Origin: a virus
Lineage: Duplodnaviria > Caudoviricetes
Reading direction: 5' to 3' (one strand)
IMG/VR virus record: IMGVR_UViG_3300037067_018912
Location: 293,276 to 357,275 of that record
DNA: 64,000 bases
Both the position numbers and the translations under genes were made by a program. Shown here in pieces: positions 266-63,143 of this stretch (its first letter is position 1; each line of letters opens with the position of its first letter). The notes under the pieces are model-generated. The model was not told the DNA's origin, made no database searches, and worked only from the letters and a program-made list of their open reading frames with translations.

Positions 266-291
266 TGTAACCTTCTTATTATTTATACGTA
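266..291 (+). promoter_or_regulatory. ECF-type promoter for the RNA cluster, overlapping a host-type TATCTTTG -7 box
   Basis: TGTAAC 266-271, 16-nt spacer, CGTA 288-291; TATCTTTG 290-297. Confidence 0.75.
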
Positions 292-305
292 TCTTTGTAT
301 CATAT

Positions 306-472
306 GGGGATGTGGACAAATTGGTAAAGTCGCTTGCATGTTTACGCACAGCAGGAGAGACGGAGAGTGTACATCATAACCGTTGGGTTACAGTTGATAA
401 TTTTATGGCGGTGCGCACCGCTGTATTATGAAGACCTATAATCTTTGGGGGTTCGAGTCCCCCCCTTCCCCA
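306..472 (+). tRNA. tRNA-like RNA with 13-nt anticodon loop and ~90-nt variable region
   Basis: GGGGATG/CTTCCCC acceptor, GAC-AAATTGGTAAA-GTC D arm, CTTGC/GCAGG stem, GGGGG-TTCGAGT-CCCCC T arm. Confidence 0.65.
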
Positions 473-564
473 CGATGTCGACCGGAAGGTCGGCATTAAT
501 GTAAGGTTGAATTAAGGGTGCATGAATCTGCAGATAACATGCATCGAATAGTCTTCCAAGCATT

Positions 565-632
565 AGCGATGTAACTCAGTTGGTAGAGTGCTCCAGAAGG
601 AGAAGTCGCAGGTTCGAATCCTGCTGTCGCAA
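565..632 (+). tRNA. tRNA-like RNA with truncated anticodon arm (4 bp + AGAA tetraloop)
   Basis: GCGATG/TGTCGC acceptor, ACTC-AGTTGGTA-GAGT D arm, CTCC-AGAA-GGAG, GCAGG-TTCGAAT-CCTGC T arm. Confidence 0.75.
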
Positions 633-652
633 CTAAAAGTTCTTTGATGATT

Positions 653-869
653 TAAAGTCTTTCCGCTTGAAGCAGAGCAGCACGAATAGTTGAAAAAAAC
701 AGCGTTAACGATGATTCCATTACGGTCATCACGTAAGTGCAGGCTGATGCAGAGGCCGTTGTTTTGTGTAAAGGTGATCGCCGCCAAGTGAAGCAATCTG
801 GTAAGGGCAGATCGGTGAAAAATGGTTGAACGCCAATCATTCTCCTGCAAATGGGACGGAAAGACTTTA
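653..869 (+). ncRNA. Unassigned ~217-nt structured RNA
   Basis: Perfect 13-bp terminal stem TAAAGTCTTTCCG (653-665)/CGGAAAGACTTTA (857-869), lying between tRNA-like genes. Confidence 0.55.
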
Positions 870-872
870 TCT

Positions 873-1077
873 GGTGTCGTGGCGAAATTGGTAGACGCAG
901 CATTCATAAAGAGTGCCATAACGTAGGAATCGGTAGTAAAACCAAATTCTTGAATAGGGGTTACTGTAACGCAAGTTGCACACTGCGAAAAAGATGGGAG
1001 AATAGGACAGGATTCCGGTGGGCGAGTAATAAAGAGTGCCGGGGCGACCCGTGGAGGTTCAAGTCCTTCGGACACCG
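873..1077 (+). tRNA. tRNA-Leu(TAA)-like gene interrupted by a 123-nt insertion
   Basis: GGTGTC/GACACC acceptor, Leu-type D arm, GCATT-CATAAAG-AGTGC anticodon arm, GGG-GCGA-CCC variable arm, T arm; direct repeat ATAAAGAGTGCC at 906-917 and 1029-1040. Confidence 0.75.
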
Positions 1078-1080
1078 CAT

Positions 1081-1161
1081 GGTTGGGTAACTTAAAAATT
1101 AGAGTGGTATTCCTGAAATAGTTGGTAACGCCAGATGTTGGTTCAAGTCCAACCCCAACCG
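1081..1161 (+). tRNA. tRNA-like RNA with enlarged anticodon arm
   Basis: Perfect GGTTGGG/CCCAACC acceptor, GTTGG-TTCAAGT-CCAAC T arm, ~15-nt anticodon loop, D loop lacks GG. Confidence 0.7.
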
Positions 1162-1261
1162 CCTTATAAAAATATTATTCATTTTTTTGTAATTAACAAC
1201 ATTATTTCCTACATTTGTTAGTTGAATTTGGTTTTTTTACAACCGATTAACCACTAACACG

Positions 1262-12220: not shown

Positions 12221-12289
12221 ACATATTACGGAAACAGTTTAAAACAAATTATTAAAGGTCTAAATTGAATAACTTTAAACGTGTGCAAA

Positions 12290-12973
12290 ATGAAAACAGC
12301 AAACAGTAAAACAGCAAAAAACAGATACAACAAATCACGTGTTATGCGTATGGCATGGGTTGTATACCGCAAAAATGGTGGTGACTTATTATGGTCAGAC
12401 AGCCTGAAACAGGCGTGGAATATGGAAAAGAACGGTTTGGCCGTTAATACCATTGAAAACCTTTATACAAGGTATTATAAAATGATTTTCAACCATATCA
12501 TTTTAAGGGTGCGCAAATATGAGATAGCACAGGAATTGACACAGGATGTCTTAATCAAAGCCAATGAACACCTTGCAAATTATGACGTTATGCGCTCCAA
12601 AGTATCAACATGGCTTTTGACTATTGCCAATAACAAAATAATTGATTTTTACCGGAGCAATGCCAATGCAAGTAATAAGGTCAATATTGGCGATTTTGTG
12701 AACGAAAAAGGTAATGAAACCCTGCCCATCATTGGCGGTTCACAGGCTAATGAAATGACTGAAAACGAAGAGTTAAAGGAAAAGATAATGTCCTGTATTG
12801 ACAAATTAAAACCTAATTACAAACAGGTTGCTATATTGCGCTTTGTCGAAGACAAGGAATACAGCGAAATAGCCGAGGCAATGTCCATAACCATTGACAA
12901 TGTGAAAGTTATGGTAAACCGTGTCCGTGCAATGTTACAAGAGCAATTGCAGGACGAATATTCCAACCTCTAA
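12290..12973 (+). CDS. ECF (group IV sigma-70) RNA polymerase sigma factor with N-terminal extension
   Basis: Region 2: AQELTQDVLIK...STWLLTIANNKIIDFYR; region 4: LKPNYKQVAILRFVEDKEYSEIAEAM...VKVMVNRVR. Confidence 0.92.
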   Translation: MKTANSKTAKNRYNKSRVMRMAWVVYRKNGGDLLWSDSLKQAWNMEKNGLAVNTIENLYTRYYKMIFNHIILRVRKYEIAQELTQDVLIKANEHLANYDVMRSKVSTWLLTIANNKIIDFYRSNANASNKVNIGDFVNEKGNETLPIIGGSQANEMTENEELKEKIMSCIDKLKPNYKQVAILRFVEDKEYSEIAEAMSITIDNVKVMVNRVRAMLQEQLQDEYSNL

Positions 12974-46297: not shown

Positions 46298-46305
46298 AAC
46301 GGTTT

Positions 46306-46512: not shown

Positions 46513-46538
46513 TACGAGAATCAAGCAAATGTGTTACA
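46513..46538 (-). promoter_or_regulatory. ECF promoter with adjacent host-type TATCTTTG box
   Basis: TGTAAC-N16-CGTA; CAAAGATA on + at 46497-46504. Confidence 0.7.
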
Positions 46539-46559
46539 AAATTATTGTATATTCGCATC

Positions 46560-48642: not shown

Positions 48643-48803
48643 TTATTGTTTTGAAATAGATTATTAAATATAATCCATTCAAAGAATAGTTGCAAGGGTT
48701 TTAAAAAAAATCCCGACAGGGGTTGGCTGCCGGGATAGGAAATTAGAAAATTTATGGAAAATTAGGGAAGAAAGCGTTGTGTTAAAGGATTTAATTAAGG
48801 GTT

Positions 48804-49073
48804 TCAATCAAACCATTCCACGTAATAAGGTAAGTATTTGATGTCATATCCTGTATTCATATCCCAAGGTGCTGTTGAGTATTTCGGACAGTTGTCGATT
48901 GGTCTTGCATGCACTATAGCCTTTCCGTCCGGTCCATAAGCACCTCCTATATAGTCGTAGACGTCCCAAGCGTTCCCTTTGTCGTCAATGCACCTTCCGA
49001 TACTCAAAGGTCTTTTCAACCTCAAAGGTTTGGTTTCCCCTGTGAAGGGGGATGAATAAGTTATGCGTACCAT
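48804..49073 (-). CDS. hypothetical protein
   Basis: Operon packing. Confidence 0.6.
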   Translation of the reverse strand: MVRITYSSPFTGETKPLRLKRPLSIGRCIDDKGNAWDVYDYIGGAYGPDGKAIVHARPIDNCPKYSTAPWDMNTGYDIKYLPYYVEWFD

Positions 49074-49085
49074 ATGAATTATTAT

Positions 49086-49532
49086 TTATGACTCTTGTTT
49101 TGAGTCTGTTTTAATGACAGTTTCAAAATAGAATTTGCCGGAGAATGGTTTGTCAGGTGTTATATCGAACAACCTGGCGACCTCAAGCATATATGCTTTT
49201 GTTTTACGGGAGCGTTCTACCACAGGATTCTTGGGTAGTTTAGCAATCCTTTTATGAAAGTCTGACATATAACGCCTGAAACCTTCCAAATCCAATGCTC
49301 TTTTATAATGATTGATGATTTTAATTGCAGGAAGAAGATTATTAAGGTTATCTATTTCCTTCAATTTGGCGTATATCTCGGTTGCGGTGGAACAAGTGTG
49401 AAAAAGTTTATACTTGTGTTTCTTTTTTGAAAGGATATGATCTACCTGCCAATCGTTACCCAAGGGTTTTCCGGTGTAAGCACATAATCCATTGAACTTG
49501 TCGTGTACGGCTTGACGGGTTGATTTATTCAT
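49086..49532 (-). CDS. HNH endonuclease-like protein
   Basis: CAYTG...WQVDH...NLLPA...NHYK. Confidence 0.8.
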   Translation of the reverse strand: MNKSTRQAVHDKFNGLCAYTGKPLGNDWQVDHILSKKKHKYKLFHTCSTATEIYAKLKEIDNLNNLLPAIKIINHYKRALDLEGFRRYMSDFHKRIAKLPKNPVVERSRKTKAYMLEVARLFDITPDKPFSGKFYFETVIKTDSKQES

Positions 49533-49788
49533 GATGTTTGCTTTTCACGTCCCGTATTTTGAGTTTATGAATCTTCCCGTCGCAGCACATGGCGTCATGA
49601 ACAGCCTGTTCCGACTTTTTGTTTGTCACTTGGAGTGTTGAGTAACCCGCTTCCTTTAATTGTTCCTTGGAGCACCTCTCGGCACTCCCACATTTACCCA
49701 ACACACATTTGCTTGCGCAAGTGCAGAAGCACAAACCGTCCGTTCCAACCAATATCACGCTCATGATAACCGTATTATTCGGGTTCAA
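49525..49788 (-). CDS. Cys-rich hypothetical protein
   Basis: Multiple Cys. Confidence 0.55.
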   Translation of the reverse strand: MNPNNTVIMSVILVGTDGLCFCTCASKCVLGKCGSAERCSKEQLKEAGYSTLQVTNKKSEQAVHDAMCCDGKIHKLKIRDVKSKHHE

Positions 49789-50827
49789 TTATTGATTGGT
49801 CAATATCGTTGATCCGTATCACACCACCCTTGACTATTTTCGTCTCGGTCTCGATTGTGATGGTGTTGGCGTCTTGCTCTTTAACCTCTGCCTTGTCGAT
49901 CTTTTTAAAGTATACGCTTTTGAAGGTAGGGACGAGGTAGCCGCCCTCCACGGTGGACGAGAACAACCCGGCGTATAAACGGTAGTCGGAGTTATTGTTG
50001 TAATTATGATAGTCGATTTTAGAGATACAGGGGATGAAATTCTCCGGGTAGGAAACTTTCGGCTGTTCGATGAAGAAGTCCCGTATCCAACCGGATACTT
50101 CAACCTGACTGCCGCTTCCACATCTTTCCAAAGAGAAGAAGTCCTTGTAATTACACGTTTCGTCATTTATATCGGCGATCCTGTTTGCCACAATAAGTAG
50201 GTAGTCTGCGAATTCTTTCACCGCTCCGGTGATCTTGCCGACTTGGAACATAAAGGTCAGCCAATCGGATTTTGTACCTGTGATCATGACCTTGGGTATG
50301 CCGCAAAGGTACATGCTGTAATTGTAATACGGACTCACCATATCGAGAAAGGCAGTGCGGTCAGCAAATTTCGACTCCTCCGTGTCAGTGGTGAAGTCAG
50401 GGAAGGCGTCCTCGATCAATTTTGAGGGCACTCTGCCTTGGAGTGCTGATATCAGCAACTCAGGACTGATAAACTCACCCCCTTGCAGGATCGTAATTTC
50501 GATCTTTTCTTTGGACTCGGTGAAGTATTTCCTATATGTTTCAGGCTTCTTATTGACTTCATAGGCCAAATTATTCAATACCACGTTCCACAGTATGGTG
50601 GGTGAAATAATCACACCATAATGACATCTCCAACATAAGGTAAGGTAGTCGAGATAATTCCTGTGTGAGATAAGAGATTCGAATGCAGTGACCTGTTGAA
50701 AACCTTTCTCAATATTGAAGAAATACCTTGGATTGAATTGTGTAGCCGTGAGGTTTAATTCCTTATTTTCCAATGCCGGATCAAGGATAATTTCTTTTTC
50801 ACTAATCGTATCGTCAAATTTTTTCAT
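49775..50827 (-). CDS. DUF4419-like protein
   Basis: H....ISP..LW, PDFTT, YY.Y...CGIP.V...GT..DW, SGWI. Confidence 0.75.
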   Translation of the reverse strand: MKKFDDTISEKEIILDPALENKELNLTATQFNPRYFFNIEKGFQQVTAFESLISHRNYLDYLTLCWRCHYGVIISPTILWNVVLNNLAYEVNKKPETYRKYFTESKEKIEITILQGGEFISPELLISALQGRVPSKLIEDAFPDFTTDTEESKFADRTAFLDMVSPYYNYSMYLCGIPKVMITGTKSDWLTFMFQVGKITGAVKEFADYLLIVANRIADINDETCNYKDFFSLERCGSGSQVEVSGWIRDFFIEQPKVSYPENFIPCISKIDYHNYNNNSDYRLYAGLFSSTVEGGYLVPTFKSVYFKKIDKAEVKEQDANTITIETETKIVKGGVIRINDIDQSIIEPE

Positions 50828-50857
50828 AGTATAATGTTTTTATCGGTTGTGTCGATT

Positions 50858-51166
50858 TCACGTCAGGTTTAAGTCTTTTTTGCAGACGATCAGTATCAAT
50901 TCGATCCTCATAGCCGCCCGGAGTCCGAATCTGTCGTCACAATCTGCCGCCTTTTTGACGTGCGGATGAATTGTTTTCCAATATTCGACATCTTGTTTCA
51001 TTTCATCAGGGAATATGTCGGTTAATTCACTGAACATGCTCCAAGCCTGGGCGTCGAAGTTCTGCACGTTCGTTATGACGTATTCTTGGAATTCCTTCTT
51101 CGCTTCCGGACTTTCGTGTCTTTGGTTTCCGAGTTGAACGAGTTTGACTTTATCTTCCCACTCCAT
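50858..51166 (-). CDS. hypothetical protein
   Basis: Operon packing. Confidence 0.6.
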   Translation of the reverse strand: MEWEDKVKLVQLGNQRHESPEAKKEFQEYVITNVQNFDAQAWSMFSELTDIFPDEMKQDVEYWKTIHPHVKKAADCDDRFGLRAAMRIELILIVCKKDLNLT

Positions 51167-51180
51167 ATTAATAATTCACA

Positions 51181-51399
51181 TTAATAATCTAATTGGTATT
51201 TCTTTCTCAATTCCTTTTGGAATTCAGTGATTTTCTTTTCCAATTCCTTGATTTCCTTTTCTTCCTTGGAGGTACTGTAACCGTCATCAGTCAACACACG
51301 AATCGTCCTTCGTAGGAAGATGATCTTTTTTTGACACTCGTAGATCGCTGAGATCAACGTTTTTATATTGACCATACCTTCTTGTTTGGTGGTTTTCAT
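51181..51399 (-). CDS. coiled-coil hypothetical protein
   Basis: Resembles 4449..4670. Confidence 0.6.
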   Translation of the reverse strand: MKTTKQEGMVNIKTLISAIYECQKKIIFLRRTIRVLTDDGYSTSKEEKEIKELEKKITEFQKELRKKYQLDY

Positions 51400-51426
51400 G
51401 ATATTGGTTTTAAAAAAGAAGGGGTT

Positions 51427-52305
51427 TTATTCCCCCTCCATTGATAATTCACCGCTTCTGTACTTCTCTGCGATTTCAAGCAATAAATCCTTCTTTTTCA
51501 AGGAGGTGAGTTTTACGATAGCAGTCTCAAGTTCCGTCAACTTATCCACTTGAAGTTTCTGTGCGTTTTGGAAATTGAGCATCATGTCCTTGAATGTCAG
51601 TAAATTCTTTTTTCTCTTGTCAGTCGAATTGGACAACAGTTCAATAACTCCATGAAGGTTGGCTTCAATTTCAATTTGCGCCAAACGAGATTCTTTTTGT
51701 TGCGCTGTCAATGCATCCAATTTTTCGTTGATAGTTACCAAAGACAGAGTTTCAACGGGGGCGGTTGCAGGAATTTCGTCGGTTGCGGTTTTTTCCACCT
51801 GAATAAACTGTTCTACATCTTTAACGATTTGGGCAAGTTTCTTTTTCCCTTTGGTAGTGATTTCATCGGAAATTTTTTCCTTTTCGATTGTGGTATTGGA
51901 TTCTGCTTTTCTCCAATCATTGCCCATGATTCCTTTCAACATGAATTCGGCACGTTGGTTGTTGGGAACTCTGACATGTTTTAAACCACCCTTATACATG
52001 CTTTGATAAGCCACATTAAGAAACTTATAAGCCATTACTTCATCAGGTTCTTTGCCAATCCAAATTGCAGTAACATCACCAATAGGCGATATGACGAATT
52101 TTACCACCCTCATTCTTTCAAAAATGTCAATGTTGGGTTGGATAGGCATTTTGAAATGCCTGTACATGGAGACACGTATTGTTTCTCCCGGACTGTCAGC
52201 GATTTCGATGTTGGTAGACAAAGTGGATGTTTCCACCACGTGTTTGTGTACTGCTTTAAGGAATTGCACGGCTGCAAGAATACTTTCCTTCTTATAATTC
52301 TTCAT
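51427..52305 (-). CDS. hypothetical protein with C-terminal coiled coil
   Basis: 292-aa ORF. Confidence 0.7.
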   Translation of the reverse strand: MKNYKKESILAAVQFLKAVHKHVVETSTLSTNIEIADSPGETIRVSMYRHFKMPIQPNIDIFERMRVVKFVISPIGDVTAIWIGKEPDEVMAYKFLNVAYQSMYKGGLKHVRVPNNQRAEFMLKGIMGNDWRKAESNTTIEKEKISDEITTKGKKKLAQIVKDVEQFIQVEKTATDEIPATAPVETLSLVTINEKLDALTAQQKESRLAQIEIEANLHGVIELLSNSTDKRKKNLLTFKDMMLNFQNAQKLQVDKLTELETAIVKLTSLKKKDLLLEIAEKYRSGELSMEGE

Positions 52306-52391
52306 AATCTCCTGATAATTAATTTATATTCGAAAATGTCGACCAAATGTAATTAAAATTTTTATTAAATGGTAAAAAAAGTGGATTATTT

Positions 52392-53105
52392 TTAATCAAG
52401 TAAGGCATCCATTTGAGCCGATTCATTCACAAATTTTAAACTTTTTCCACAAAACGGGCAGTAATTGATCACTATATATGAATGCCCACCGTCGTGAATA
52501 ATGATCCCGTATTCCTTTTTGTTCTCCGAACGGAAGATCAGGTTGTCGGGACAGTCAAACCCGTTCGGGTGTTGTTCGCAGCGATGTGCGATATGTCTTT
52601 CCATGTCATGGCAGCAATACACGTCCTTTTCAACAAGATGTACTCCTTCGCTGTTTTCCGGCAGGATATGGCCAAGTATCTCAGTTATCATTTTCTCCTC
52701 ACTTATTTCATCATCGTGGTCGGTGTTGCCGCTGTCCTCGTTGTCGTCTGAGCCGTAGGCTACCTTTTTCTCCTTATTCCATGCATTGCCGTCTTCCGGG
52801 ATGTATGCTCTCAACTTGTCCTTGCGGCCAAGATAAAATATAAAACAAATCGGCCATTCCCAATCACCTCCGGCATTGACAAAATAGATGTGGAATCCTG
52901 GTGCTATCTCTCTGTAGCCGACAGGGTATGTGGAAAATCCTTCGTTTTTTCCAAAGTAAGTATAATTTTCGAAATCGAATTGAACCTTACTCAAATCCTT
53001 TTGAATCTTGTCTGAAAGATTATCATAGGGAAAGTCGTCACTTGTCATCAATTTCTCAATCTTGGCAAGGAATTCCTCTTGAGTTGTTGGTTTATAGTAT
53101 CTCAT
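52392..53105 (-). CDS. two-domain protein with Cys-rich C-terminal domain
   Basis: CC..M...C..H...CPD...EYG..IHDGG...I.YCPFCG. Confidence 0.7.
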   Translation of the reverse strand: MRYYKPTTQEEFLAKIEKLMTSDDFPYDNLSDKIQKDLSKVQFDFENYTYFGKNEGFSTYPVGYREIAPGFHIYFVNAGGDWEWPICFIFYLGRKDKLRAYIPEDGNAWNKEKKVAYGSDDNEDSGNTDHDDEISEEKMITEILGHILPENSEGVHLVEKDVYCCHDMERHIAHRCEQHPNGFDCPDNLIFRSENKKEYGIIIHDGGHSYIVINYCPFCGKSLKFVNESAQMDALLD

Positions 53106-53476
53106 TGGTGTTTGTTTATAGTGAAAAATCTGTCTTTACAAATATATTTAAAAAAAAGGGTATCTCCAACACTCTTGTTGTACCATAATTCATTGGTTAT
53201 TAGGAATCCATTGCTGCGGTTGTGACTGTAACTGACGAGTTCGGCGAACTGCGTGGTGTCTGCGACCCTTTGTATCAGCCACATCTTGACCAATACCGGG
53301 GAATGAAACTTATCCTGTGTGAGCGTTCCACTCGATTCTGCACTAACAATCACGAACTTTTCGTTACGGAATAATTCCCTATCATTGAGTTTCGACCTGC
53401 ATGATCTGGTAAGCAAAATAATACCTGTGAGGACTATGAAAATAACCGTCATACTTATACTTATTTGTTTATTCAT
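53102..53476 (-). CDS. membrane-anchored protein
   Basis: N-terminal TM. Confidence 0.6.
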   Translation of the reverse strand: MNKQISISMTVIFIVLTGIILLTRSCRSKLNDRELFRNEKFVIVSAESSGTLTQDKFHSPVLVKMWLIQRVADTTQFAELVSYSHNRSNGFLITNELWYNKSVGDTLFFKYICKDRFFTINKHQ

Positions 53477-53814
53477 GGCAAATCCATTATTTGTTTATAG
53501 AATTCTATGTTGTCCATTTCCTTTTGAAGGCGTTCCTTTTTGGTCTTGACTTTCTCGTTCTTGATGAATTTGATGTTGGAGACAGCACGTTTGACTTGCT
53601 TTTCAAGCCATTCCTTCGGAGGGTGCTCGTCCTTGTCCATTACGTGTAGACATACACGGTAGCCGTCTTCATAACCGCCATCGGTATTCTCACCCCAATT
53701 CTCCATCAACTCCTGCTGTTTGGCGTCGGTGTCGATCTCAGATTGGTCGAGGTGTTTGTAATCCGTGTGGCTTCCGCCCCGGAAATACTTATCAAGTTTG
53801 ATCCAAACTTTCAT
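53473..53814 (-). CDS. hypothetical protein
   Basis: ATGA overlap. Confidence 0.65.
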   Translation of the reverse strand: MKVWIKLDKYFRGGSHTDYKHLDQSEIDTDAKQQELMENWGENTDGGYEDGYRVCLHVMDKDEHPPKEWLEKQVKRAVSNIKFIKNEKVKTKKERLQKEMDNIEFYKQIMDLP

Positions 53815-53821
53815 GTGTTAT

Positions 53822-54055
53822 TTATTTGAATTTATCTTTTGATATCGACCACACGCTTGGTTTCAGATGCGGGTTGTCGCCAATGTATCTTATGATCAGG
53901 CTTTCATTAGCCTGTTCAAGTTCTTTCAAGGCGTCGTTTATCAACTGCACCTTATCGTTCAAGTCGCTTTGTGTGAGAATAATCTGCATCATGCACAACT
54001 TATGCCATTTGACGAGGATCGTCCTTTCCATTCCGCTGTAATCGTCCAAATTCAT
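53822..54055 (-). CDS. hypothetical protein
   Basis: Operon packing. Confidence 0.55.
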   Translation of the reverse strand: MNLDDYSGMERTILVKWHKLCMMQIILTQSDLNDKVQLINDALKELEQANESLIIRYIGDNPHLKPSVWSISKDKFK

Positions 54056-54064
54056 TGAAGTGTT

Positions 54065-54322
54065 TTATGAATTCTGTTTGATCTTTTCCTGCCATTCTTG
54101 TTTGGTCGTTTCCAACCTGCGTTTCAATTCGGTAGTCATTTTGACAATCTTCTCATTCCACTCTTCGTCGCTGTCGCAACTGATTTCTGTCCAATGCATG
54201 TTGAAATCTTTGTTGTTGTCTTCCGTGCCGACGAAAGAGTCGCCGTTGAACTTCATGCCGAGGGTGTGCAGGTCAGCATACCTCTTGTTCTGTTTTTCGT
54301 GTATTTCGTCGATGAAACTCAT
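54065..54322 (-). CDS. hypothetical protein
   Basis: Operon packing. Confidence 0.6.
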   Translation of the reverse strand: MSFIDEIHEKQNKRYADLHTLGMKFNGDSFVGTEDNNKDFNMHWTEISCDSDEEWNEKIVKMTTELKRRLETTKQEWQEKIKQNS

Positions 54323-54636
54323 GGTAATTGTTGTAGTTTGGTGAATTCTTTTAAATCTTTCTCAAATTTTTTCTCACGTGCTATTAATTCTTTCTTATAT
54401 GCCTTACAGTTTCTCAGCCAATTCAACAAGTTCTGATTGGTGTGCCATTCCTTTTCACCCGTTTTCTTATCCTTAATCACAAACAGGTGTTGGTACACCT
54501 TACCCCTTTTGGTGAATTTGACAAAGTGGAAAATGATATTAATGCCAAATTCTTCTGCGAGTTTAATGGTCTGTTTCAAAACAGGATAGTCTTTCGCTGC
54601 TTGTTCAAGTGATATTGAATACTTTCCTTTTATCAT
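54319..54636 (-). CDS. hypothetical protein
   Basis: Start reassigned to MIKGKY (ATGA overlap). Confidence 0.6.
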   Translation of the reverse strand: MIKGKYSISLEQAAKDYPVLKQTIKLAEEFGINIIFHFVKFTKRGKVYQHLFVIKDKKTGEKEWHTNQNLLNWLRNCKAYKKELIAREKKFEKDLKEFTKLQQLP

Positions 54637-54872
54637 GATATTTCGATTTGATAATCCTTCCATAATTGGTCGATGGTCTTGTTGCCAATTTTGGCATGCG
54701 ACAGCCAATTTGCAAACGCTTTTGCTTCCTGTTCGGCATCGGCTTTCATTGCCCGTAGCACCGCTTCTTTGTATTGAAGCGGGAATTCTCTTGGGAAGAT
54801 TGATTCAACACCTTTCTCCTTGGCGAATTTGGTGTATTCTTCCTGCAGTATTTCTTCGGATGTCTTATTCAT
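54633..54872 (-). CDS. hypothetical protein
   Basis: Start reassigned to MNKTSE. Confidence 0.55.
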   Translation of the reverse strand: MNKTSEEILQEEYTKFAKEKGVESIFPREFPLQYKEAVLRAMKADAEQEAKAFANWLSHAKIGNKTIDQLWKDYQIEIS

Positions 54873-55218
54873 CGACTTCCACTTTAATTTCATACTTGAA
54901 TTCGCATTCCTGTGGTTCAAAGCCTTTTTCACTCTCCCACCAATGCTCCTTTTTGAACGGGTGAATGACAAGTATGTTTTTTTCAACCCATTGCTCCCGG
55001 TCGTAGACCTTTTCCCAAACACTGAAAAGAACCTGTTTGCCGTGTTTTGCCAAGTCTTTGCTGAAAGAGGCAAGTCCCATGAGTTCAGCGGGGTGCTCCC
55101 CCGGAGGGTTGCATTTAGACGCCTGCATGTAACTATCAGCCAATTCTTTTATGGCAGTCTCTTCGTTATCGAATTCTCCTTCGATAGAGAGTTTGAATGA
55201 TTCCATCTTGTATTTCAT
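54865..55218 (-). CDS. hypothetical protein
   Basis: Operon packing. Confidence 0.6.
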   Translation of the reverse strand: MKYKMESFKLSIEGEFDNEETAIKELADSYMQASKCNPPGEHPAELMGLASFSKDLAKHGKQVLFSVWEKVYDREQWVEKNILVIHPFKKEHWWESEKGFEPQECEFKYEIKVEVDE

Positions 55219-55233
55219 AGTAAACAGATTTGT

Positions 55234-55467
55234 TTATTTCTTGGTATTACGTCTTACAATAGCGAAGAACTCAATCCCCCTGTTTTTAAATGCGGGAGGA
55301 AAGACTGTGAAATACCTGAATTCGTTAGCACCCACACTTCCGGTGGCTTTTGCCATAATAGCAGCACTCCTTGCACACTCCATAGAGTTGCCGGAGACTA
55401 CAGTGAAACCTTCCATTCCCTCTACGGGAATGTCATTCAGGTTACTTAAAGGCAGTTGTCCTTCCAT
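55234..55467 (-). CDS. hypothetical protein
   Basis: Has own ECF promoter. Confidence 0.55.
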   Translation of the reverse strand: MEGQLPLSNLNDIPVEGMEGFTVVSGNSMECARSAAIMAKATGSVGANEFRYFTVFPPAFKNRGIEFFAIVRRNTKK

Positions 55468-55492
55468 ATCAATTGATTTTATTAATCAATGT

Positions 55493-55518
55493 TACGAATC
55501 GGAAGTTATTATGTTACA
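55493..55518 (-). promoter_or_regulatory. ECF promoter
   Basis: TGTAAC-N16-CGTA. Confidence 0.7.
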
Positions 55519-55565
55519 AATATAAGTATAAAAGGAATACAATGATCAAAATAATTAAGAAAAAA

Positions 55566-55590
55566 AACGGGATGTGTTTTACATCCCGTT
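55566..55590 (-). terminator. terminator of rtcB
   Basis: AACGGGATGT-GTTTT-ACATCCCGTT with T-tract on minus strand. Confidence 0.75.
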
Positions 55591-55595
55591 GATTC

Positions 55596-56780
55596 TTAGT
55601 GCGCTTTGAAGTTGTAGAGCGGCTTTATGGTGTCGACGATATCCACGGTGTCCGTGATAGCCGCCTTGATTTCTTCAATGGACTTGTAAGCCTGTGGTGC
55701 TTCGTCGAGAGTTTCAGTACCCACTGAGGTCGTATAGATTCCCTTCATCGACTTAGCGAAGTCTCCCATATCGAGGTTCTTCTTCGCCATGCTCCTGCTC
55801 ATGAGTCTACCTGCACCGTGAGGTGCGGAATAGTTCCAATCTTCGTTACCCTTACCAATACATAACAGCGAACCGTCACGCATATTGATTGGAATAAGGA
55901 GTTTCTCATCCTTTTCAGCACTTACCGCACCCTTACGTAGGATCATACGCTTGAAATCGATATAGTTGTGGATGGTCTCAAACCTCGATTCCTCGTATAG
56001 GTTCATCTCATCCAATATGATCATAGCCATCGTAGCACGGTTAAGGACGGCAAATAATTGCACGATCTTCATGTCGTTCATATAATCGTTGAAATCATCC
56101 CCGATCAGGAAAGCCAATTCCTTGTCAGTTACAGGCTTCTTGATCTTCTTCAATTCCACAGCAATATCCTTCTCACGACCTTCGGCCTTTAAACGCTTGA
56201 TAAGGTTATCCTTTATCTTACCCATTTCATTTGCGTTGGAGAATGCTAAGTCCTGATAGTACTTACACACATCACCGCCGAGTTTCCTGCTTCCGGAGTG
56301 TATAACAAGATACAACTTTCCTGTGGACTCGGACTTACCAACCTCGATGAAGTGGTTTCCACCACCCAATGAACCGAGTGATAAAGCCGCCCTTTGCAAG
56401 TCAACACGCTTTTGACAACGAAGTCCTGAAAAGTCGAACTTCGCCCTTGACTTGGAGTGTACATCGAAACCGTTTGGAACTTGGGACTTGATAATTTCAT
56501 CCAATTTCTTGAAGTCGATATCAACCTCCTTTAATTCAACAGTCAACATACCACATCCGATATCGACACCCACGAGGTTTGGGGTGATCTTATCAATGAC
56601 GGTCATGGTCGTACCAACCGTGCAACCCTTCCCGGCGTGTGCGTCAGGCATGATACGGATTTTAGAATCCTGGTATGCCTCGAAGTTACACATCTTCTTT
56701 ACTTGCTCGAATGCTTCGTATTCGAAGGTCTCAGCAAAGATGAGGGTTTCAATACCTTTTATGTTGGTTATGATCTTCAT
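55596..56780 (-). CDS. rtcB: RtcB RNA 3'-phosphate/5'-OH ligase
   Basis: MPDAH.GKG, VGVDIGCG, GGGNHFIE, HSGSR, HNY, RKGA, SAPHGAGR, DEAP.AYK. Confidence 0.95.
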   Translation of the reverse strand: MKIITNIKGIETLIFAETFEYEAFEQVKKMCNFEAYQDSKIRIMPDAHAGKGCTVGTTMTVIDKITPNLVGVDIGCGMLTVELKEVDIDFKKLDEIIKSQVPNGFDVHSKSRAKFDFSGLRCQKRVDLQRAALSLGSLGGGNHFIEVGKSESTGKLYLVIHSGSRKLGGDVCKYYQDLAFSNANEMGKIKDNLIKRLKAEGREKDIAVELKKIKKPVTDKELAFLIGDDFNDYMNDMKIVQLFAVLNRATMAMIILDEMNLYEESRFETIHNYIDFKRMILRKGAVSAEKDEKLLIPINMRDGSLLCIGKGNEDWNYSAPHGAGRLMSRSMAKKNLDMGDFAKSMKGIYTTSVGTETLDEAPQAYKSIEEIKAAITDTVDIVDTIKPLYNFKAH

Positions 56781-56804
56781 TATGGTTATTTGTAAAACAG
56801 ATAT

Positions 56805-56830
56805 TACGATATTATAAGGGTTTTGTTACA
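56805..56830 (-). promoter_or_regulatory. ECF promoter for rtcB
   Basis: TGTAAC-N16-CGTA ending 25 nt upstream of ATG. Confidence 0.75.
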
Positions 56831-56937
56831 AAAACCGAAGGGAGGCTGCCGTTCTGGTTAAACGGAACAACCTCCCTCATAATTAATTGTATTACACAAT
56901 ATCGAACAAGCAAAGATATAAAATAAATTTCAAATTA

Positions 56938-57786
56938 TCAAGCCGATTTTCTGCGACGGTTTAAAATCCATGCCGGAATATAAGCATGTCTGCTTGACCG
57001 TTTCTTTTTTGGTTTTTCAGGCTTGGTTTGCTTTGACTGTGTGATGGGATTCTTTGGTTGAAGATTCTTTTTCACAATTTTCTTCCTCCGGACTACCTTC
57101 GGTTTTTCTATTTGAACAGGTTTTTGTTTCAATTTGATAGGTTCAGGCTTTTGTTTCTCCTTTACGGGGACAGGTTTCTGGTTTTTACCTTTCCATACAG
57201 GTTCTGTTTCGACAATATATGCATCGATTTGTTCGTTGTATTTCTTGCATTTGGCATCGTTTTCTTTTTTCAGGACGGCGATCCTTAACCGTTCATGGTT
57301 GAGGTTGGCTTTGAATTCCTTTAAATAATGGTATTGTTGATGAAGTGTGTCATGACAAGTCCTGCACAGGCACAACAAATCTTTGGTGCGCAGTATTTCC
57401 CATCCGAATGCGTCGTATGTGGTGTGATGCGCCTGCATAGGTGTGTTGGCATGGTCCTTGTCGTCCTTGAAAAACTCACAACGGTGGCCTGCTATCATTC
57501 TTATGTAATCCGAGACATATCTCCAATAGAGCGTTTTGTTCGTATAATCCTTGTAATTGCCATTATAATAAAACCTGTCCCGAATATAAGCACAGATGTA
57601 TTCCCGGTCGACATCGGGGTTGCTGTAGTCTTTCTTCATTTCATCCCAATGCCTTTTTACGTCAAGGGGGTCGTTCTTATATGGAATTGCTTTATTGGTC
57701 AGGAGGTATTTTTCGATGAATCCCACGGTCTCCGGCGTGGTAAATAAGAGTTGTTTCATTAAACCTAACGTGTGAATAGCCGCCAC
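56938..57786 (-). CDS. HNH-like nuclease with basic C-terminal tail
   Basis: HH.TY...E...DL..LCRTCH...H. Confidence 0.7.
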   Translation of the reverse strand: MAAIHTLGLMKQLLFTTPETVGFIEKYLLTNKAIPYKNDPLDVKRHWDEMKKDYSNPDVDREYICAYIRDRFYYNGNYKDYTNKTLYWRYVSDYIRMIAGHRCEFFKDDKDHANTPMQAHHTTYDAFGWEILRTKDLLCLCRTCHDTLHQQYHYLKEFKANLNHERLRIAVLKKENDAKCKKYNEQIDAYIVETEPVWKGKNQKPVPVKEKQKPEPIKLKQKPVQIEKPKVVRRKKIVKKNLQPKNPITQSKQTKPEKPKKKRSSRHAYIPAWILNRRRKSA

Positions 57787-57891
57787 AGGGACAGCAAAAT
57801 CCGGTTATTTACAAAAGCAATGGTTTAAGATTATTTGAATTATTGCTTTAAATAACGAATATAACACATTCAGTATTAAAATGCAAGGGTT

Positions 57892-58143
57892 CTAAATAAT
57901 ATTTCTTTTGGTTTGTGCAATCAAATTACCTTTATAATATAATTTCCGTTCATTAGGGGTGGTAATTAAAATCAATCCATCAAAATTATATGTGTATCCT
58001 TTGGGTAGACTCTCGCCAAAGTTTATTATATCACATCCATTATTAATTGGTGGACATGCAATATATGTAATTATTTTATCGTCCAAATCTTTTATTATAA
58101 TGCAATTCGGATTTTTTTTATCAAAGTAAATATTATAGTCCAT
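57892..58143 (-). CDS. hypothetical protein
   Basis: AT-rich ORF. Confidence 0.5.
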   Translation of the reverse strand: MDYNIYFDKKNPNCIIIKDLDDKIITYIACPPINNGCDIINFGESLPKGYTYNFDGLILITTPNERKLYYKGNLIAQTKRNII

Positions 58144-58182
58144 GATTTCATATCTATATATTATAGATTGTGATGGTTGTTA

Positions 58183-58383
58183 TTACATTTGCATGTAATA
58201 CCTTTTAACTACTTTTTCGAATAATGCGAATAGGTCGGCATCTTCAACCAAGTCGAGGTTGTCCAGATCAAGGTTAGATATGTGAACGCCGTTGAATTCG
58301 AAATTACTCCAACGCATAGTGGCATTAGAGAAACCATCCCGTTCCTTAATTTTTTTCAATCTCTCGATTACAAGTTCTCTCAT
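58183..58383 (-). CDS. hypothetical protein
   Basis: Start reassigned to MRELVI; host-type TATCTTTG box upstream. Confidence 0.55.
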   Translation of the reverse strand: MRELVIERLKKIKERDGFSNATMRWSNFEFNGVHISNLDLDNLDLVEDADLFALFEKVVKRYYMQM

Positions 58384-58529
58384 GGTCAAGTTGTTTTGTG
58401 GATGATACGCCAAAGATACTACGTTGTTACAGATATTAATCAAAAAAAACGAGAATTTTTTTCGTGGAATGAAATATTGTGTTATATTTGTTTCGAAATC
58501 TTTATTTGTCAAACGAATAATACAAGATT

Positions 58530-59168: not shown

Positions 59169-60188
59169 ATGATAAGTAATATGTTACCAAGCGGCATGCA
59201 AGGTGGTGAAAAGAAACCACTATGGCAGCAAAAGGGTGGCACGTTCTCAATAGTCGTGCTCGCCGGATTGATAATCGCATTCATTGTGAATGCTCCGAAA
59301 CTCTTATTCCTCTTCCAAAGCACTTTGAGTGCGCTATTGACTTTGGGTGCAATTGGCCTTATAGTCTTCCTGTTCACAGACAAGAAGTTTAGAATGGCAT
59401 TGAGCGTCGGTTATTTTATATTCATGAGGAAACTATTGGGGTTCTTTGTAGAGATGGCCCCTGACAAGATTCTTGAAAGAAGAATAGCACAAATGGAACG
59501 CAATACAGCCGACAGTGAAAAAGCAGTTGGCAAGTTGGGTGGCATCAAGCGTGACCTTGAAAAGAAACTCCGTGAAAAAGAGGTGAAAATTAAGGAAAAT
59601 GCCGATGCAGCAAAAGTACTTCGTCAGAGGGGCGACAACAACAGGCAATTGATAGCCGAACGTGAAATGCAGCGTCAGACCAAACTCGCCAACATGTATG
59701 TCGAGATACTCAATTCAGTTACTAAGTGGTATGCTACTCTTATGAAACTGACCGAGATGGCCAAACTGACCGTCGAGGACGCACGTAACGAAGTCGAGGC
59801 TTTGAAAGAGCAATACAAGATTGCAAGCATAGCCTACAGTTCCTACAAAAGTGCCATGTCGGCAATGAAGGGTGATCCTGACGAGGCCGCCTTATATCAA
59901 TCGGCTATGGAGAAGATGACTGACGATATAAGTTCCAAACTCGGTGAGATGGAATTGGTTCTCAATGAGACTTCCGGTGTCATCAACAAGATTGATGTTC
60001 AGAAGGAGATCATGTCCATACAGGGTGGTCAACTTTTGGAAAAATATGAGAAATTGGGATTGGACGGCATCCTCAATAGGTTTGAAACACTTCCTTCGGG
60101 CAAGGTTCAAAATTCAATTGAGATGGAATATGAACCCATTACACTCAGCACAGAAGTCAAAACGGCTTCAAATTATTTTGACAACTGA
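59169..60188 (+). CDS. membrane-anchored PspA/IM30-like coiled-coil protein
   Basis: N-terminal TMs then long coiled coil. Confidence 0.65.
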   Translation: MISNMLPSGMQGGEKKPLWQQKGGTFSIVVLAGLIIAFIVNAPKLLFLFQSTLSALLTLGAIGLIVFLFTDKKFRMALSVGYFIFMRKLLGFFVEMAPDKILERRIAQMERNTADSEKAVGKLGGIKRDLEKKLREKEVKIKENADAAKVLRQRGDNNRQLIAEREMQRQTKLANMYVEILNSVTKWYATLMKLTEMAKLTVEDARNEVEALKEQYKIASIAYSSYKSAMSAMKGDPDEAALYQSAMEKMTDDISSKLGEMELVLNETSGVINKIDVQKEIMSIQGGQLLEKYEKLGLDGILNRFETLPSGKVQNSIEMEYEPITLSTEVKTASNYFDN

Positions 60189-60221
60189 AATTAATAATCA
60201 TAACTTTAAAATTTTACTGAA

Positions 60222-61787
60222 ATGTGGAACAAATTAACTTTTGGTGGTAGATTGGTAATAACAATCTTGATAATGGGTGCGGTGGTATGCGCCTATATAT
60301 TCCTGATCAAACCGAATATCAAAACCCTTTCAAAGGGTACTAAAGGCACTACGGCGACGTCTCAAAAGAAATCGTCCGGTGGTCTTTTCTCATCAGGTGA
60401 TGAACTTACCGTGACTTATAACACTTTTATCGGTGTAGCGGGTCTGATTCATATGAACGACGGTATTGCTCCGAACAAAGAATCCCGTATGTATAAGGAA
60501 TATGGTATATTACTTACCATTAATATACAGGATATTGTAAAGGATAGCCGTAGTTCTTTGATCTCCGGTGATATTGATGCAGTTTATTGCACTACAGACG
60601 CCTTGTCGATAGATATGTCAAGTGGAAGTGGTGTTGTTATGGCGAAAGCGAAACAGATCATGCAGATCAATCAATCAAGAGGTGCTGATGTGCTTGTCGT
60701 TGATCCTTCAATAAAAAGGATTTCCGATCTCAAGGGTAAAGAGATTGCTTGTGCAGTCGGAACTGCCTCACAGACAGGTCTTATTGAATTTTTGAAATTG
60801 AGTAAAATGACGGTGAAAGATGTTATTATTATTAAAGTTGGTGATGGCATCGAAGCATCCAATATGTTCAAGAGCGGTCAAGTCCCGGCTGCTATGGTGT
60901 GGTATCCTGACAACAAGGATTGTCTTGATGCTATTCCTGGTTCAAGGGAATTAATTTCCACCAAGCAGGCATCTAATATTATTGCCGATGGTTTACTTGT
61001 TACAGAAGAAGTTCTTAACGAAAAGGGTGAAGAAATTACCAAATTGGTAACCGCATGGCTTGTAGGTAATGCTGAAATGAATGTTGACGAGGCCGCAAAA
61101 CAACATGCCGCAAAAGTGTTTGCAAGAGACTTCCTCGGTGACAAACCGGGAACATATGAAGTTTCTTTGGATATGCTCTCCGGCGTGAGGTTCTCGACCT
61201 ATGGTGATAATATGAATTTCTTCGGTCTGAATCCCACTTTCACAGGTGTCACAGGCGACGAAATGTATACGAAAATGTCGGTAATATATGCTAATCTTGG
61301 TCAGACCAAATCACCACAGCCTTGGAGATCAATATCTGACGTATCTATATTACAAGCCATAAACCTTTCAAGTGATCCCAAGCAGGCTGCCGAAGTTGCA
61401 CCTTCATTCGCTCCTGCTCCGAAAGAATTGGAGACTGCACCTGCCATATCGAATATAAAAGCATCAATAAACTTTGATAATAATTCTGCAGAATTGGACG
61501 AAGATGATAAATACATCATCAAAAAAGAATTTGCAGGAATTGCTAAATCGTTCAGGGATGCTCGCATAAGGATAGCCGGGAACACCGACAACGTCGGAAA
61601 TGCAGCGTATAACAAAACCTTGTCAAGGAAACGTGCACAGGCTGTTGCTGATTATTTGATACAAGAGTACAGTTTCGATCCTGATAAATTCATAATCATT
61701 GGCAACGGGTCGAAAGAAGCCATTGAGGACGGAAGCGTCGGTTCAAATGAAAATTACAGGAGAACTGATTTCGAAGTCGTCAATTAA
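60222..61787 (+). CDS. SsuA/THI5-like ABC substrate-binding protein fused to OmpA-like domain
   Basis: SRGAD...I..I.DLKGK.IA, VW.P, IAD; C-terminal I.F..NS..L, GNTDNVG...N..LS..RAQAV..YL, RRTDF. Confidence 0.85.
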   Translation: MWNKLTFGGRLVITILIMGAVVCAYIFLIKPNIKTLSKGTKGTTATSQKKSSGGLFSSGDELTVTYNTFIGVAGLIHMNDGIAPNKESRMYKEYGILLTINIQDIVKDSRSSLISGDIDAVYCTTDALSIDMSSGSGVVMAKAKQIMQINQSRGADVLVVDPSIKRISDLKGKEIACAVGTASQTGLIEFLKLSKMTVKDVIIIKVGDGIEASNMFKSGQVPAAMVWYPDNKDCLDAIPGSRELISTKQASNIIADGLLVTEEVLNEKGEEITKLVTAWLVGNAEMNVDEAAKQHAAKVFARDFLGDKPGTYEVSLDMLSGVRFSTYGDNMNFFGLNPTFTGVTGDEMYTKMSVIYANLGQTKSPQPWRSISDVSILQAINLSSDPKQAAEVAPSFAPAPKELETAPAISNIKASINFDNNSAELDEDDKYIIKKEFAGIAKSFRDARIRIAGNTDNVGNAAYNKTLSRKRAQAVADYLIQEYSFDPDKFIIIGNGSKEAIEDGSVGSNENYRRTDFEVVN

Positions 61788-61872
61788 AGTTTGTATTATT
61801 TGTTTGGTTAGAGGGTGCTGCCGCCTTTACGGTGTGCAGCACCCTCTTTCAATATCTAAAAAACGATATTAA

Positions 61873-62049
61873 ATGAAAACAAAAACTATATTAATCATAA
61901 TTGTAGTGGTAATAGCCATCGCTGTGATTGGATATTACACCTTTCCTTTGGTCTTGGCATTGTTTAAGACAGCGATGGGTATAATAGCCTTACTGCTCGT
62001 CGCACTTGGAATTGCCATAGGTACAATTGTATCAAAACTAAAGAAATGA
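61873..62049 (+). CDS. 58-aa two-TM protein
   Basis: Hydrophobic; ATGA overlap with permease. Confidence 0.6.
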   Translation: MKTKTILIIIVVVIAIAVIGYYTFPLVLALFKTAMGIIALLLVALGIAIGTIVSKLKK

Positions 62050-62939
62050 TGAAGAATAACATATTCAAATTCGACGGACAGGTCGATGCCAAGACTATGA
62101 TCGTCCTCAAGGTACTCGGCGTAGTGGGATTCTTGTTGACATGGGAGGTTTTAAGCCTATTCAGTGTCCCTCAGATATTACCGTCGCCGTACAGGGTGCT
62201 TTTAGCACTCAAGGAATTGCTGACGGACGGTGGGACGTATACCGATATAGGGTTTTCAATCAAATTGAACCTCACGGGTTATGTGTATGCTATTCTGATA
62301 ACCATTCCTTTCGGTTTCCTTATAGCATTATACCCCGGATTTAGGGGTCTTTTTAATGCAAATATAAACGCCACACGCTACCTGCCGTTGACTGCGGTTA
62401 CGGGTCTATTCATAGCCTGGTTCGGTCTTGAGTTCAGTATGAAATCCTATTTCATGGGTTTTTCTATACTGATATACTTACTACCTGCAATGATACAGAG
62501 GGTCGACGAAGTGGAAAAGATACACAAGCAGATCATTCACACCCTCGGCGCAACGACGTGGCAGAAATTCAGGTACGTCTTCTTCCCGTCGACTATGCCA
62601 AAGTTTTGGAGGGATGTGAGGTTGCTCACAGCCATATCATGGACATACATCATCGTAGCCGAACTCATGAATAAAACGCACGGTGTGGGTGCTATGGTGT
62701 TCAACGCCGGAAAGCAAAGTAGGGCAGATCAGATCATCGCTATACTGATAATAATTATTGTTATCGGCATGCTGCAGGATATTGTGTTCATATTCAGCCA
62801 CAGGTTGATGTTCCCGCATGATTATAACATCTATCGTCAAAAGAAAATCGTGCTCGTACCTGTCAATCCATCGGAGATCGCCAAACCTGCAGAATCAGTC
62901 AAAAAGAATCTGTTGCAACGCTTAAACCTCATGAAATGA
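62046..62939 (+). CDS. SsuC/TauC-like ABC permease
   Basis: LPSP..V, TLGAT.WQ....V..P, W..II.AE. Confidence 0.88.
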   Translation: MMKNNIFKFDGQVDAKTMIVLKVLGVVGFLLTWEVLSLFSVPQILPSPYRVLLALKELLTDGGTYTDIGFSIKLNLTGYVYAILITIPFGFLIALYPGFRGLFNANINATRYLPLTAVTGLFIAWFGLEFSMKSYFMGFSILIYLLPAMIQRVDEVEKIHKQIIHTLGATTWQKFRYVFFPSTMPKFWRDVRLLTAISWTYIIVAELMNKTHGVGAMVFNAGKQSRADQIIAILIIIIVIGMLQDIVFIFSHRLMFPHDYNIYRQKKIVLVPVNPSEIAKPAESVKKNLLQRLNLMK

Positions 62940-63136
62940 GAGACACTTTGGAGTTCATTAAAGACGGTTTTGAATATATATGGGATGATTACATATATCC
63001 TTTCCTGTTTAAAGAATATCGTTCAGATACTACCGTTTATGGTAGAGAATATAAAATAAAAAGGACGTTGAATACAGGCAACATCGCCTTATTGCTTGCA
63101 ATAGTGGCAATTATATTGATAATAACACTTAAATAA
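62936..63136 (+). CDS. small membrane protein
   Basis: C-terminal TM; ATGA overlap. Confidence 0.55.
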   Translation: MRDTLEFIKDGFEYIWDDYIYPFLFKEYRSDTTVYGREYKIKRTLNTGNIALLLAIVAIILIITLK

Positions 63137-63143
63137 TATTCGT

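Follow-up and report, generated by a model that had tools for sequence, protein, structure and literature searches.

A stand-alone RtcB RNA ligase of a T4-like jumbo phage, probably a repair enzyme, in a genome with insert-bearing tRNA-like genes and an HDV-like ribozyme

Introduction

Which RNA ends would the RtcB ligase of a large phage join? The gene in question, rtcB, lies in the final 64 kb (293276-357275) of the 357,275-bp virus record IMGVR_UViG_3300037067_018912; this stretch (G+C 40.0%) is the window below, and coordinates refer to it unless stated otherwise. RtcB enzymes catalyse the GTP/Mn-dependent joining of a 2',3'-cyclic phosphate or 3'-phosphate to a 5'-OH. A sequence-only reading of the window had quoted this chemistry as it is established, and had combined RtcB, tRNA-like genes with inserts, a hepatitis delta virus (HDV)-like ribozyme and a shared promoter into a dispersed tRNA splicing/repair system, with plain repair of cleaved tRNA as the simpler alternative. 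All the named parts, including the shared promoter core, exist; the functional link among them was not supported. The simpler alternative is the reading that we favour: the enzyme is probably a counter-defence RNA-repair ligase of a T4-like jumbo phage.

The rtcB gene and its transcription unit

The gene and its transcription signals are as follows.

55596..56780, minus strand: rtcB coding sequence, 394 aa (PF01139, E=7.3e-60; PHROG 1075 'tRNA splicing ligase', E=2.5e-135)
56805..56830, minus strand: rtcB promoter TGTAAC-N16-CGTA, an exact motif match with the CGTA end 24 nt 5' of the ATG
55566..55590, minus strand: intrinsic terminator of rtcB, a 10-bp stem with a T-run (terminator scan; fold -18.6 kcal/mol, z=-6.9)
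~56838..56878, minus strand: terminator hairpin of the preceding gene (fold -28 kcal/mol, z=-5.3, 0/200 shuffles as stable)

The protein scored 203.8 bits against PF01139, for which the cut-off is 27. In a phmmer alignment with P. horikoshii RtcB, residues D95, C98, N202, H203, H234 and H404, the metal ligands and guanylylation site, were identical in the phage enzyme; the stretch of H329 fell outside the alignment. The ORF (open reading frame) encodes an intact RtcB, predicted to join RNA ends as the family does. It is the single RtcB of the genome, and the sole RNA ligase detected there: searches of the genome for RtcA (PF01137) and for Rnl2-type ligases gave zero matches, and a search for Rnl1 carried no information, since not even its control produced a match. 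A genome search for Ro/TROVE (PF05731) likewise gave zero matches.

The U-run that follows the terminator hairpin of the preceding gene (56938..57786) continues into the -35 element (TGTAAC) of rtcB. The gene is monocistronic and lies between two strong terminator hairpins, so that its description as a stand-alone unit stands.

RtcB as a probable repair ligase

The phage is a T4-like myovirus, with a Gp23 capsid match of E=4.2e-74 and Pfam matches to the T4 portal, baseplate, sheath and terminase; the Pfam scan covered 381 ORFs besides rtcB, 106 in the window and 275 elsewhere. Upstream of the window, at 159-283 kb of the genome, ARAGORN found 60 tRNAs and a transfer-messenger RNA (tmRNA), with nearly all of the tRNAs in arrays at 249-283 kb; the tmRNA scored 104.8 bits in Rfam. 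Enzymes acting on RNA ends are scattered through the genome, namely a HAD_SAK_2 'RNA repair' phosphatase domain, a Rv2179c-like 3'-5' exoribonuclease and a CCA-adding-type PolyA_pol domain. Two metallophosphoesterases adjoin the tRNA arrays, and Pfam also marks numerous nucleotide-metabolism genes.

We favour repair on the grounds of the RtcB identity, its conserved catalytic residues, the heavy outlay of the phage on translation RNAs, the scattered RNA-end enzymes, and the mobility of an RtcB family that acts alone, as set out in the next section. In the proposed mechanism, host metal-independent ribonucleases (anticodon nucleases, toxin or defence RNases) would cut host or phage tRNAs during infection, and possibly other translation RNAs too, and RtcB would reseal the cut tRNA or other translation RNA. 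The gene would be transcribed from the standard ECF (extracytoplasmic function) sigma-type promoter of this phage, alongside its tRNA genes and dozens of small genes of an early or anti-defence type. We infer the substrates of RtcB, the timing of its expression and which of three ECF sigma factors would read its promoter. This reading agrees with PMC7824862, where the RtcB of jumbo phages is described as ligating tRNAs that host RNases have cleaved.

Two observations weigh against repair as the role of RtcB. The HDV-like ribozyme of the phage is predicted to make at least one RNA end of the type that RtcB uses, so a role in the RNA processing of the phage itself is chemically possible. The placement of rtcB near tRNA clusters in several phages (23/80, see below) fits any tRNA-related role, and not just repair. 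Taken together, the ways in which RtcB might serve such processing, splicing and ribozyme products combined, are in our estimate unlikely.

Distribution of rtcB among viruses

An RtcB relative was encoded by 147 of 150 candidate viral stretches. For 80 rtcB loci we compared neighbourhoods of up to 10 kb on each side, and in none of them were the genes that flank rtcB here kept. A megablast search of 55000-58000 against named phage records gave zero matches. tRNAs were present in 26 of 34 rtcB-bearing records; among the 24 records of at least 90% completeness, six had none, and RtcB is therefore not dependent on phage tRNAs. A tRNA lay within the examined flank in 50/80 loci, usually upstream and on the same strand, mostly in one lineage of ~58-kb contigs; the nearest tRNA was upstream, on the same strand and within 3 kb in 23/80.

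The nearest large RtcB-bearing phage has an RtcB 74% identical to ours and 14 ordinary tRNAs; its genome is 25% G+C, which makes it a different phage. We found in it no copy of the promoter motif, no ribozyme core and, with a script that looks for T arms and acceptor stems, no insert-bearing tRNA-like gene; a DNA search of that phage for 250-1250, which holds the first tRNA-like locus of the window, found nothing. The parts that had been proposed to work as a set thus do not accompany RtcB there. The ECF-type promoter was found at rtcB in 0/30 relatives checked. The rtcB promoters of the closest relatives are presumably of another type, matched by eye to the Bacteroidetes TTTG/TAnnTTTG consensus.

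The unconserved neighbours, and relatives lacking inserts and ribozyme, indicate that rtcB travels alone between unrelated phages. Judged by these genomes, the predicted ligase works where there are neither inserts nor ribozymes.

Targets other than tRNA

RtcB might chiefly repair non-tRNA targets, such as rRNA or mRNA cut by host toxins, and act as a ribosome-rescue enzyme. The best NCBIfam models for the protein were the generic PRK09588 'RtcB family' (144.5 bits) and TIGR03073 'release_rtcB' (109 bits); both matches, although in keeping with such a role, are under their cut-offs. The tmRNA of the phage would also fit. Against it, no release-factor-like partner appeared among the 381 Pfam-scanned ORFs, in a scan that included no search aimed at one, and the recurrent placement of rtcB near tRNA clusters in other phages points to tRNA. 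We consider rescue of non-tRNA targets as the chief task of RtcB unlikely.

The promoter class

The promoter motif of rtcB occurs in 29 exact copies in the window (mean 0.08 and maximum 1 in 100 shuffles) and 41 in the whole 357-kb genome; a relaxed form gave 67 matches in the genome, 48 of them within the last 117 kb. Its orientation is that of the genes, all copies at 266-31923 being on the plus strand and all copies at 38885-58431 on the minus strand. The motif stands just 5' of 19 of the 107 candidate ORFs of the window. Of the 9 remaining window copies, three precede tRNA-like loci and one precedes a repeated non-coding element; by our reading, three others stand before genes that probably start further downstream than listed, and two lie inside ORFs.

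As described in PMC5758882, ECF sigma promoters have an AAC-containing -35 element, a CGT(A/C) -10 element and a spacer of ~16 nt, and the sigma-W promoter of Bacillus subtilis has TGAAAC and CGTA. By these consensus features, TGTAAC-N16-CGTA is classed as an ECF-sigma-type promoter. Three genes of the phage exceed the cut-off of the sigma70-ECF model TIGR02937 (42.9), with 93, 60.5 and 75.2 bits:

12281..12973, plus strand: ECF-family sigma factor, candidate reader of the promoter (Pfam Sigma70_r2/r4_2; TIGR02937 93 bits)
L003:13556-14257, minus strand: second ECF-family sigma gene (TIGR02937)
L007:9388-9966, minus strand: third ECF-family sigma gene (TIGR02937)

An ECF-like TCGAAC-N16-CGTA sits 5' of the sigma gene in the window, the product of which is a candidate for reading this promoter class.

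Three of these promoters head six tRNA-like elements:

266..1163, plus strand: locus 1, promoter 266-291 and four tRNA-like elements (motif, Rfam, ARAGORN, T-arm/acceptor script)
306-471, plus strand: element 1, its anticodon arm carrying a ~95-nt insert (Rfam tRNA 25.4 bits, under gathering)
565-632, plus strand: element 2, with a 4-bp stem and AGAA tetraloop at the anticodon-arm position (Rfam tRNA 45.8 bits)
873-1078, plus strand: element 3, with a ~121-nt 'intron' (found by ARAGORN only with introns allowed)
about 1081-1162, plus strand: element 4, with an irregular anticodon region (Rfam tRNA 39.3 bits)
27305..27418, plus strand: locus 2, promoter 27305-27330 and element 5 (motif)
27357-27415, plus strand: element 5, with acceptor, D and T arms and no anticodon arm (T-arm script; 5' half by eye)
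38608..38885, minus strand: locus 3, promoter 38885..38860 and element 6 (motif)
38811..38608, minus strand: element 6, with a ~150-nt insert replacing the anticodon loop (7/7 acceptor pairs, T arm, D arm)

That rtcB and tRNA loci share the motif is therefore correct, and by exact matches it holds for three loci (266, plus strand; 27305, plus strand; 38885, minus strand). The same core also lies 5' of ordinary tRNA arrays, e.g. at 249524, 253308, 264542 and 272365 of the genome. After the CGTA, rtcB reads CGTAATATCT, in line with the ORF consensus CGTAayATCTTACA, and the three tRNA-like loci depart from that consensus with CGTATCTTTG, CGTAATATTG and CGTAAATACA. Since TGTAAC-N16-CGTA is the commonest promoter class of the phage, sharing it with the tRNA-like genes and the ribozyme is weak evidence of partnership. 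As a functional link the shared promoter is not supported: the class is a generic one, and it places rtcB in the largest regulon of the phage.

We also observed a highly regular run of short genes at 13900-28200 on the plus strand. The TGTAAC -35 element often lies in the loop of the terminator hairpin of the prior gene, with the T-run as spacer (e.g. 17761, 19997, 21067, 25069), and in this array a near-invariant leader, ATCTTACATAAyCAATACACAA, then extends as far as the ATG. A non-coding element of ~60 nt is present in two copies on the plus strand (22071-22130 and 27993-28050), each starting a few bases past an ECF-type promoter (22036 and 27957) and standing ahead of another promoter and a gene. 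One of its helices reads GCGGGT/ACCCGC in one case and GTGGGT/GCCCAC in the other, with the pairing kept through a two-sided change. We considered this repeated element as the ribozyme named by the sequence-only reading and rejected it, as it is without an Rfam match and an HDV-like helix order could not be fitted by hand.

The HDV-like ribozyme

The ribozyme candidate abuts element 6:

38539..38607, minus strand: HDV-like (theta-type) ribozyme candidate (Rfam RF02682, full-length match)

In a sensitive scan of 38400-38950, RF02682 (HDV ribozyme of F. prausnitzii) matched with 25.4 bits and E=0.014 and did not reach the gathering score of 44; when the model was searched over the whole genome, nothing was listed, the site at 38539-38607 included. 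The acceptor strand of element 6 ends at 38609, its discriminator is 38608, and G1 of the ribozyme is 38607. The putative cleavage site is therefore less than 5 nt from the tRNA-like 3' end, at the 3' end of element 6 and not at an insert boundary. The core motif has one copy in the genome, and the canonical tRNA arrays showed none.

Comparative evidence came from a pattern scan of IMG/VR, which gave 54 loci, 23 of them with a perfect 7-bp P1, and many of these 23 directly followed the 3' end of a tRNA. We aligned six distinct sequences: the P1 and P3 helices were paired in 60/60 cells, and three P1 pairs had changed on both sides. Among 500 shuffles, none reached the observed percentage of pairing, the two-sided changed cells or the covariation score, and 16 reached three such pairs. 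P2 and P4 vary in sequence in most of the six with the pairing kept; the nested double pseudoknot (P1 with G1.U, P2, P3, P4) was found in 6/6, as was the C in J4/2. We take this well-supported ribozyme to be real, and it is predicted to be self-cleaving.

HDV-class ribozymes leave 2',3'-cyclic phosphate and 5'-OH ends. The predicted cleavage would thus end the released tRNA-like RNA in a 2',3'-cyclic phosphate and leave a 5'-OH on the downstream RNA, which runs into an HNH endonuclease ORF (38018..38575).

Our own loose HDV-like descriptors were uninformative, and it was the sensitive Rfam scan alone that found the ribozyme. The loosest descriptor matched near 29 of 65 tRNA ends with the catalytic C, vs 32, 32 and 31 with A, G and T in that position, a result without enrichment. 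A stricter one gave 8 vs 6, 7 and 7 of 65 near tRNA ends and 140 vs 151, 136 and 186 window-wide. Rfam scans of the whole window (E<=1) and of 250-1250 and 27300-28240 (E<=10) returned zero ribozymes.

The arrangement resembles that of the theta ribozymes found beside phage tRNAs (section 7 of PMC10879173), in that G1 here too directly follows a tRNA-like 3' end. The nested helices with the C in J4/2 are the same as well, and here too CCA is not encoded, in a phage with a CCA-adding-type domain. It differs in the upstream partner, which is a normal tRNA there and an insert-bearing tRNA-like RNA here, and in the ligase, which is RtcB here; 'RtcB' occurs 0 times in that paper. According to section 7 of PMC10879173, DRB0094, an RNA ligase of another family, is found in 54.5% of theta-ribozyme phage genomes.

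These features invite the proposal that RtcB joins ribozyme products, i.e. the cyclic-phosphate tRNA-like end or the downstream 5'-OH, to other RNA, or circularises a fragment. The ends left by an HDV-class ribozyme are exactly the substrate ends of RtcB, a well-supported ribozyme of this class abuts element 6, and the frequent DRB0094 ligase of theta-ribozyme phages would be a precedent. The distribution of the two does not bear out a partnership: RtcB was found in 0/23 viral records with this ribozyme type, a non-co-occurrence that is suggestive, as only 2 of the records reach 90% completeness, with another 4 at 64-89%, and the loose core occurred in only 2/80 rtcB neighbourhoods. Moreover, the core is single in this genome, and tRNA 3' maturation requires removal of the cyclic phosphate, not ligation. 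We regard the joining of ribozyme products by RtcB as very improbable. An equally improbable extension is a phage-run cut-and-join pathway, in which insert-bearing tRNA scaffolds, one of them trimmed by the ribozyme, would be joined or circularised by RtcB under one ECF regulon. If true, it would be a virus-encoded analogue of archaeal/eukaryal tRNA splicing or of circular-RNA formation.

The tRNA-like elements and their inserts

ARAGORN with default settings found zero tRNAs in the window, and none of the six tRNA-like elements encodes CCA. Element 5 matched just the tRNA-like end of the tmRNA model of Rfam (19.5 bits). Element 6 gave zero Rfam tRNA matches at E<=10; its D arm is nearly identical to that of element 2. 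The insert of element 3 is flanked by a perfect 12-nt direct repeat (906-917 and 1029-1040). The minimum-energy fold of 873-1079 places the insert inside an anticodon stem made with the second copy of this repeat, as splicing would have it. Conceptual removal of the insert leaves the junction ambiguous within the repeat, and hence the anticodon loop is ambiguous too; by reading, the deletion set by the repeat gives a loop without U just before the anticodon. A clean anticodon arm was not found in elements 1 and 6. The folds of the three insert-bearing elements were no stabler than shuffles (z = -1.0, -1.0 and +1.0).

A relative contig in run X1 kept both tRNA-like flanks and had 103 different letters in place of 89. 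Among DNA contigs of four runs aligned on 1-1500, no insert-free variant of this phage was seen; 'joints' that had suggested such variants were the ordinary tRNAs of other organisms matching the two halves. An 18-nt anticodon-arm word had a single match in IMG/VR, which alignment showed to be due to chance.

Because some elements have a tetraloop or nothing at the place of the anticodon loop, we infer that the six resemble non-decoding tRNA scaffolds, some with extra domains, rather than interrupted decoding tRNAs.

Splicing of the phage tRNAs with RtcB as the sealing enzyme would require some nuclease or ribozyme to cut out the 95-150-nt inserts of elements 1, 3 and 6. The EndA-type splicing endonuclease (PF01974) had zero genome-wide matches at E<=0.1, in a search whose control found it in 4 archaea, and archease was not found in the genome search. 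Bulge-helix-bulge motifs occurred as 0-4 loose matches per element, vs shuffle means of 0.8-1.2, and none was placed to restore a tRNA. Rfam scans of the tRNA-like loci showed no ribozyme in or at the inserts. Although the position of three large inserts in the anticodon arm, the fold of element 3, the different insert of the X1 contig, the promoter core common to rtcB and the tRNA-like loci and the status of RtcB as the sole RNA ligase found all speak for it, RtcB-sealed splicing is very improbable, given the missing endonuclease, archease, ribozyme and bulge-helix-bulge motif, the ambiguous and U-less junction, the unremarkable folds, the nearest large RtcB-bearing phage without such genes, and scaffold-like paralogues which suggest that the inserts may never be removed.

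We must also note two features around these elements. A perfect 13-nt inverted repeat (653-665/857-869, plus strand) encloses ~190 nt between two tRNA-like elements and may be a structured RNA freed by tRNA-end processing. A 17-nt stretch in the insert of element 3 (933-949) is 88% complementary to 1224-1240 in the leader of ORF 1262-1588, which may be chance.

Comparison with known systems

Phage T4 repairs PrrC-cleaved tRNA with Pnkp and Rnl1. The present phage is of the T4-like virion lineage by its Gp23, portal and baseplate matches, and its RtcB, like the T4 pair, would be a phage-encoded answer to host tRNA cutting; the difference is that RtcB would seal directly, whereas T4 heals and then seals. 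The bacterial RtcR-RtcA-RtcB operon and the Rsr-Y RNA-RtcB module have the same ligase family and the same presumed resealing of damaged tRNA/rRNA, and the tRNA-like non-coding RNAs of our genome recall the latter module. In contrast to both, neither RtcA nor Ro/TROVE was found here, and rtcB is not in an operon; the one Y-RNA-like match in Rfam was insignificant (19.3 bits, E=0.36). Archaeal tRNA splicing by EndA, RtcB and archease has the ligase in common with this phage, which also has tRNA-like genes that carry inserts close to the anticodon, but its endonuclease, archease and bulge-helix-bulge motif have no counterpart among our matches.

A close likeness is to the RtcB of other phages and jumbo phages (PHROG 1075; PMC7824862), which is of the same family; here too the gene stands alone, and the jumbo phage is rich in tRNAs. 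The ECF-sigma-type promoter sets the present gene apart from the relatives checked. The gene adds one more member to an established phage family, in which RtcB has already been read as counter-defence repair, and a literature search of titles and abstracts found no paper tying the RtcB of phages to tRNAs with inserts. Were RtcB to act on RNAs of the phage itself, this would be the first enzymatic RNA splicing/ligation pathway known from a bacterial virus; the results given here speak against it. The interest of the locus lies in its setting, a T4-like jumbo phage with ~60 tRNAs, a tmRNA, three ECF sigma factors, a very regular promoter class, six tRNA-like RNAs of aberrant form and an HDV-like ribozyme next to one of them. 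Compared with rtcB itself, the scaffolds with inserts, such a ribozyme and an ECF regulon in a T4-like jumbo phage are the more unusual features.

Other features of the genome

IMG/VR classes the record as having direct terminal repeats; an identical end repeat of 200-10,000 nt was not found. At its right end (59169-63962, plus strand) are host-like transport genes, namely an NMT1/OmpA fusion, an ABC permease and an ABC ATPase. A type II restriction-modification pair lies at 46461-48642, where a C5 cytosine methylase (46461-47792, plus strand) overlaps an endonuclease of the Cfr10I/Bse634I family (47779-48642, minus strand), and further C5 methylases are encoded at 23132-23998 and L019:7190-8122. 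A polyvalent protein of 1507 aa (L009:5962-10485, minus strand) combines an ADP-ribosyltransferase, a GNAT acetyltransferase and a CCA-adding-type nucleotidyltransferase with its RNA-binding domain.

Beside the tRNA arrays, L020:7607-7805 gave a weak match to archaeal RNase P RNA (26.2 bits, E=0.0012, far under gathering). Several class-I tRNAs of the phage that are canonical in other respects (Gln, Lys, Thr, Asn, Cys and Trp) have long, hairpin-forming variable arms, with a total tRNA length of 80-90 nt. Examples, among others, are:

L018:10497-10582: long-variable-arm tRNA
L019:9074-9157: long-variable-arm tRNA
L019:9223-9304: long-variable-arm tRNA
L020:4549-4632: long-variable-arm tRNA

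Such arms are unusual for these isotypes, and this phage may tend to keep expansions in its mature RNAs.

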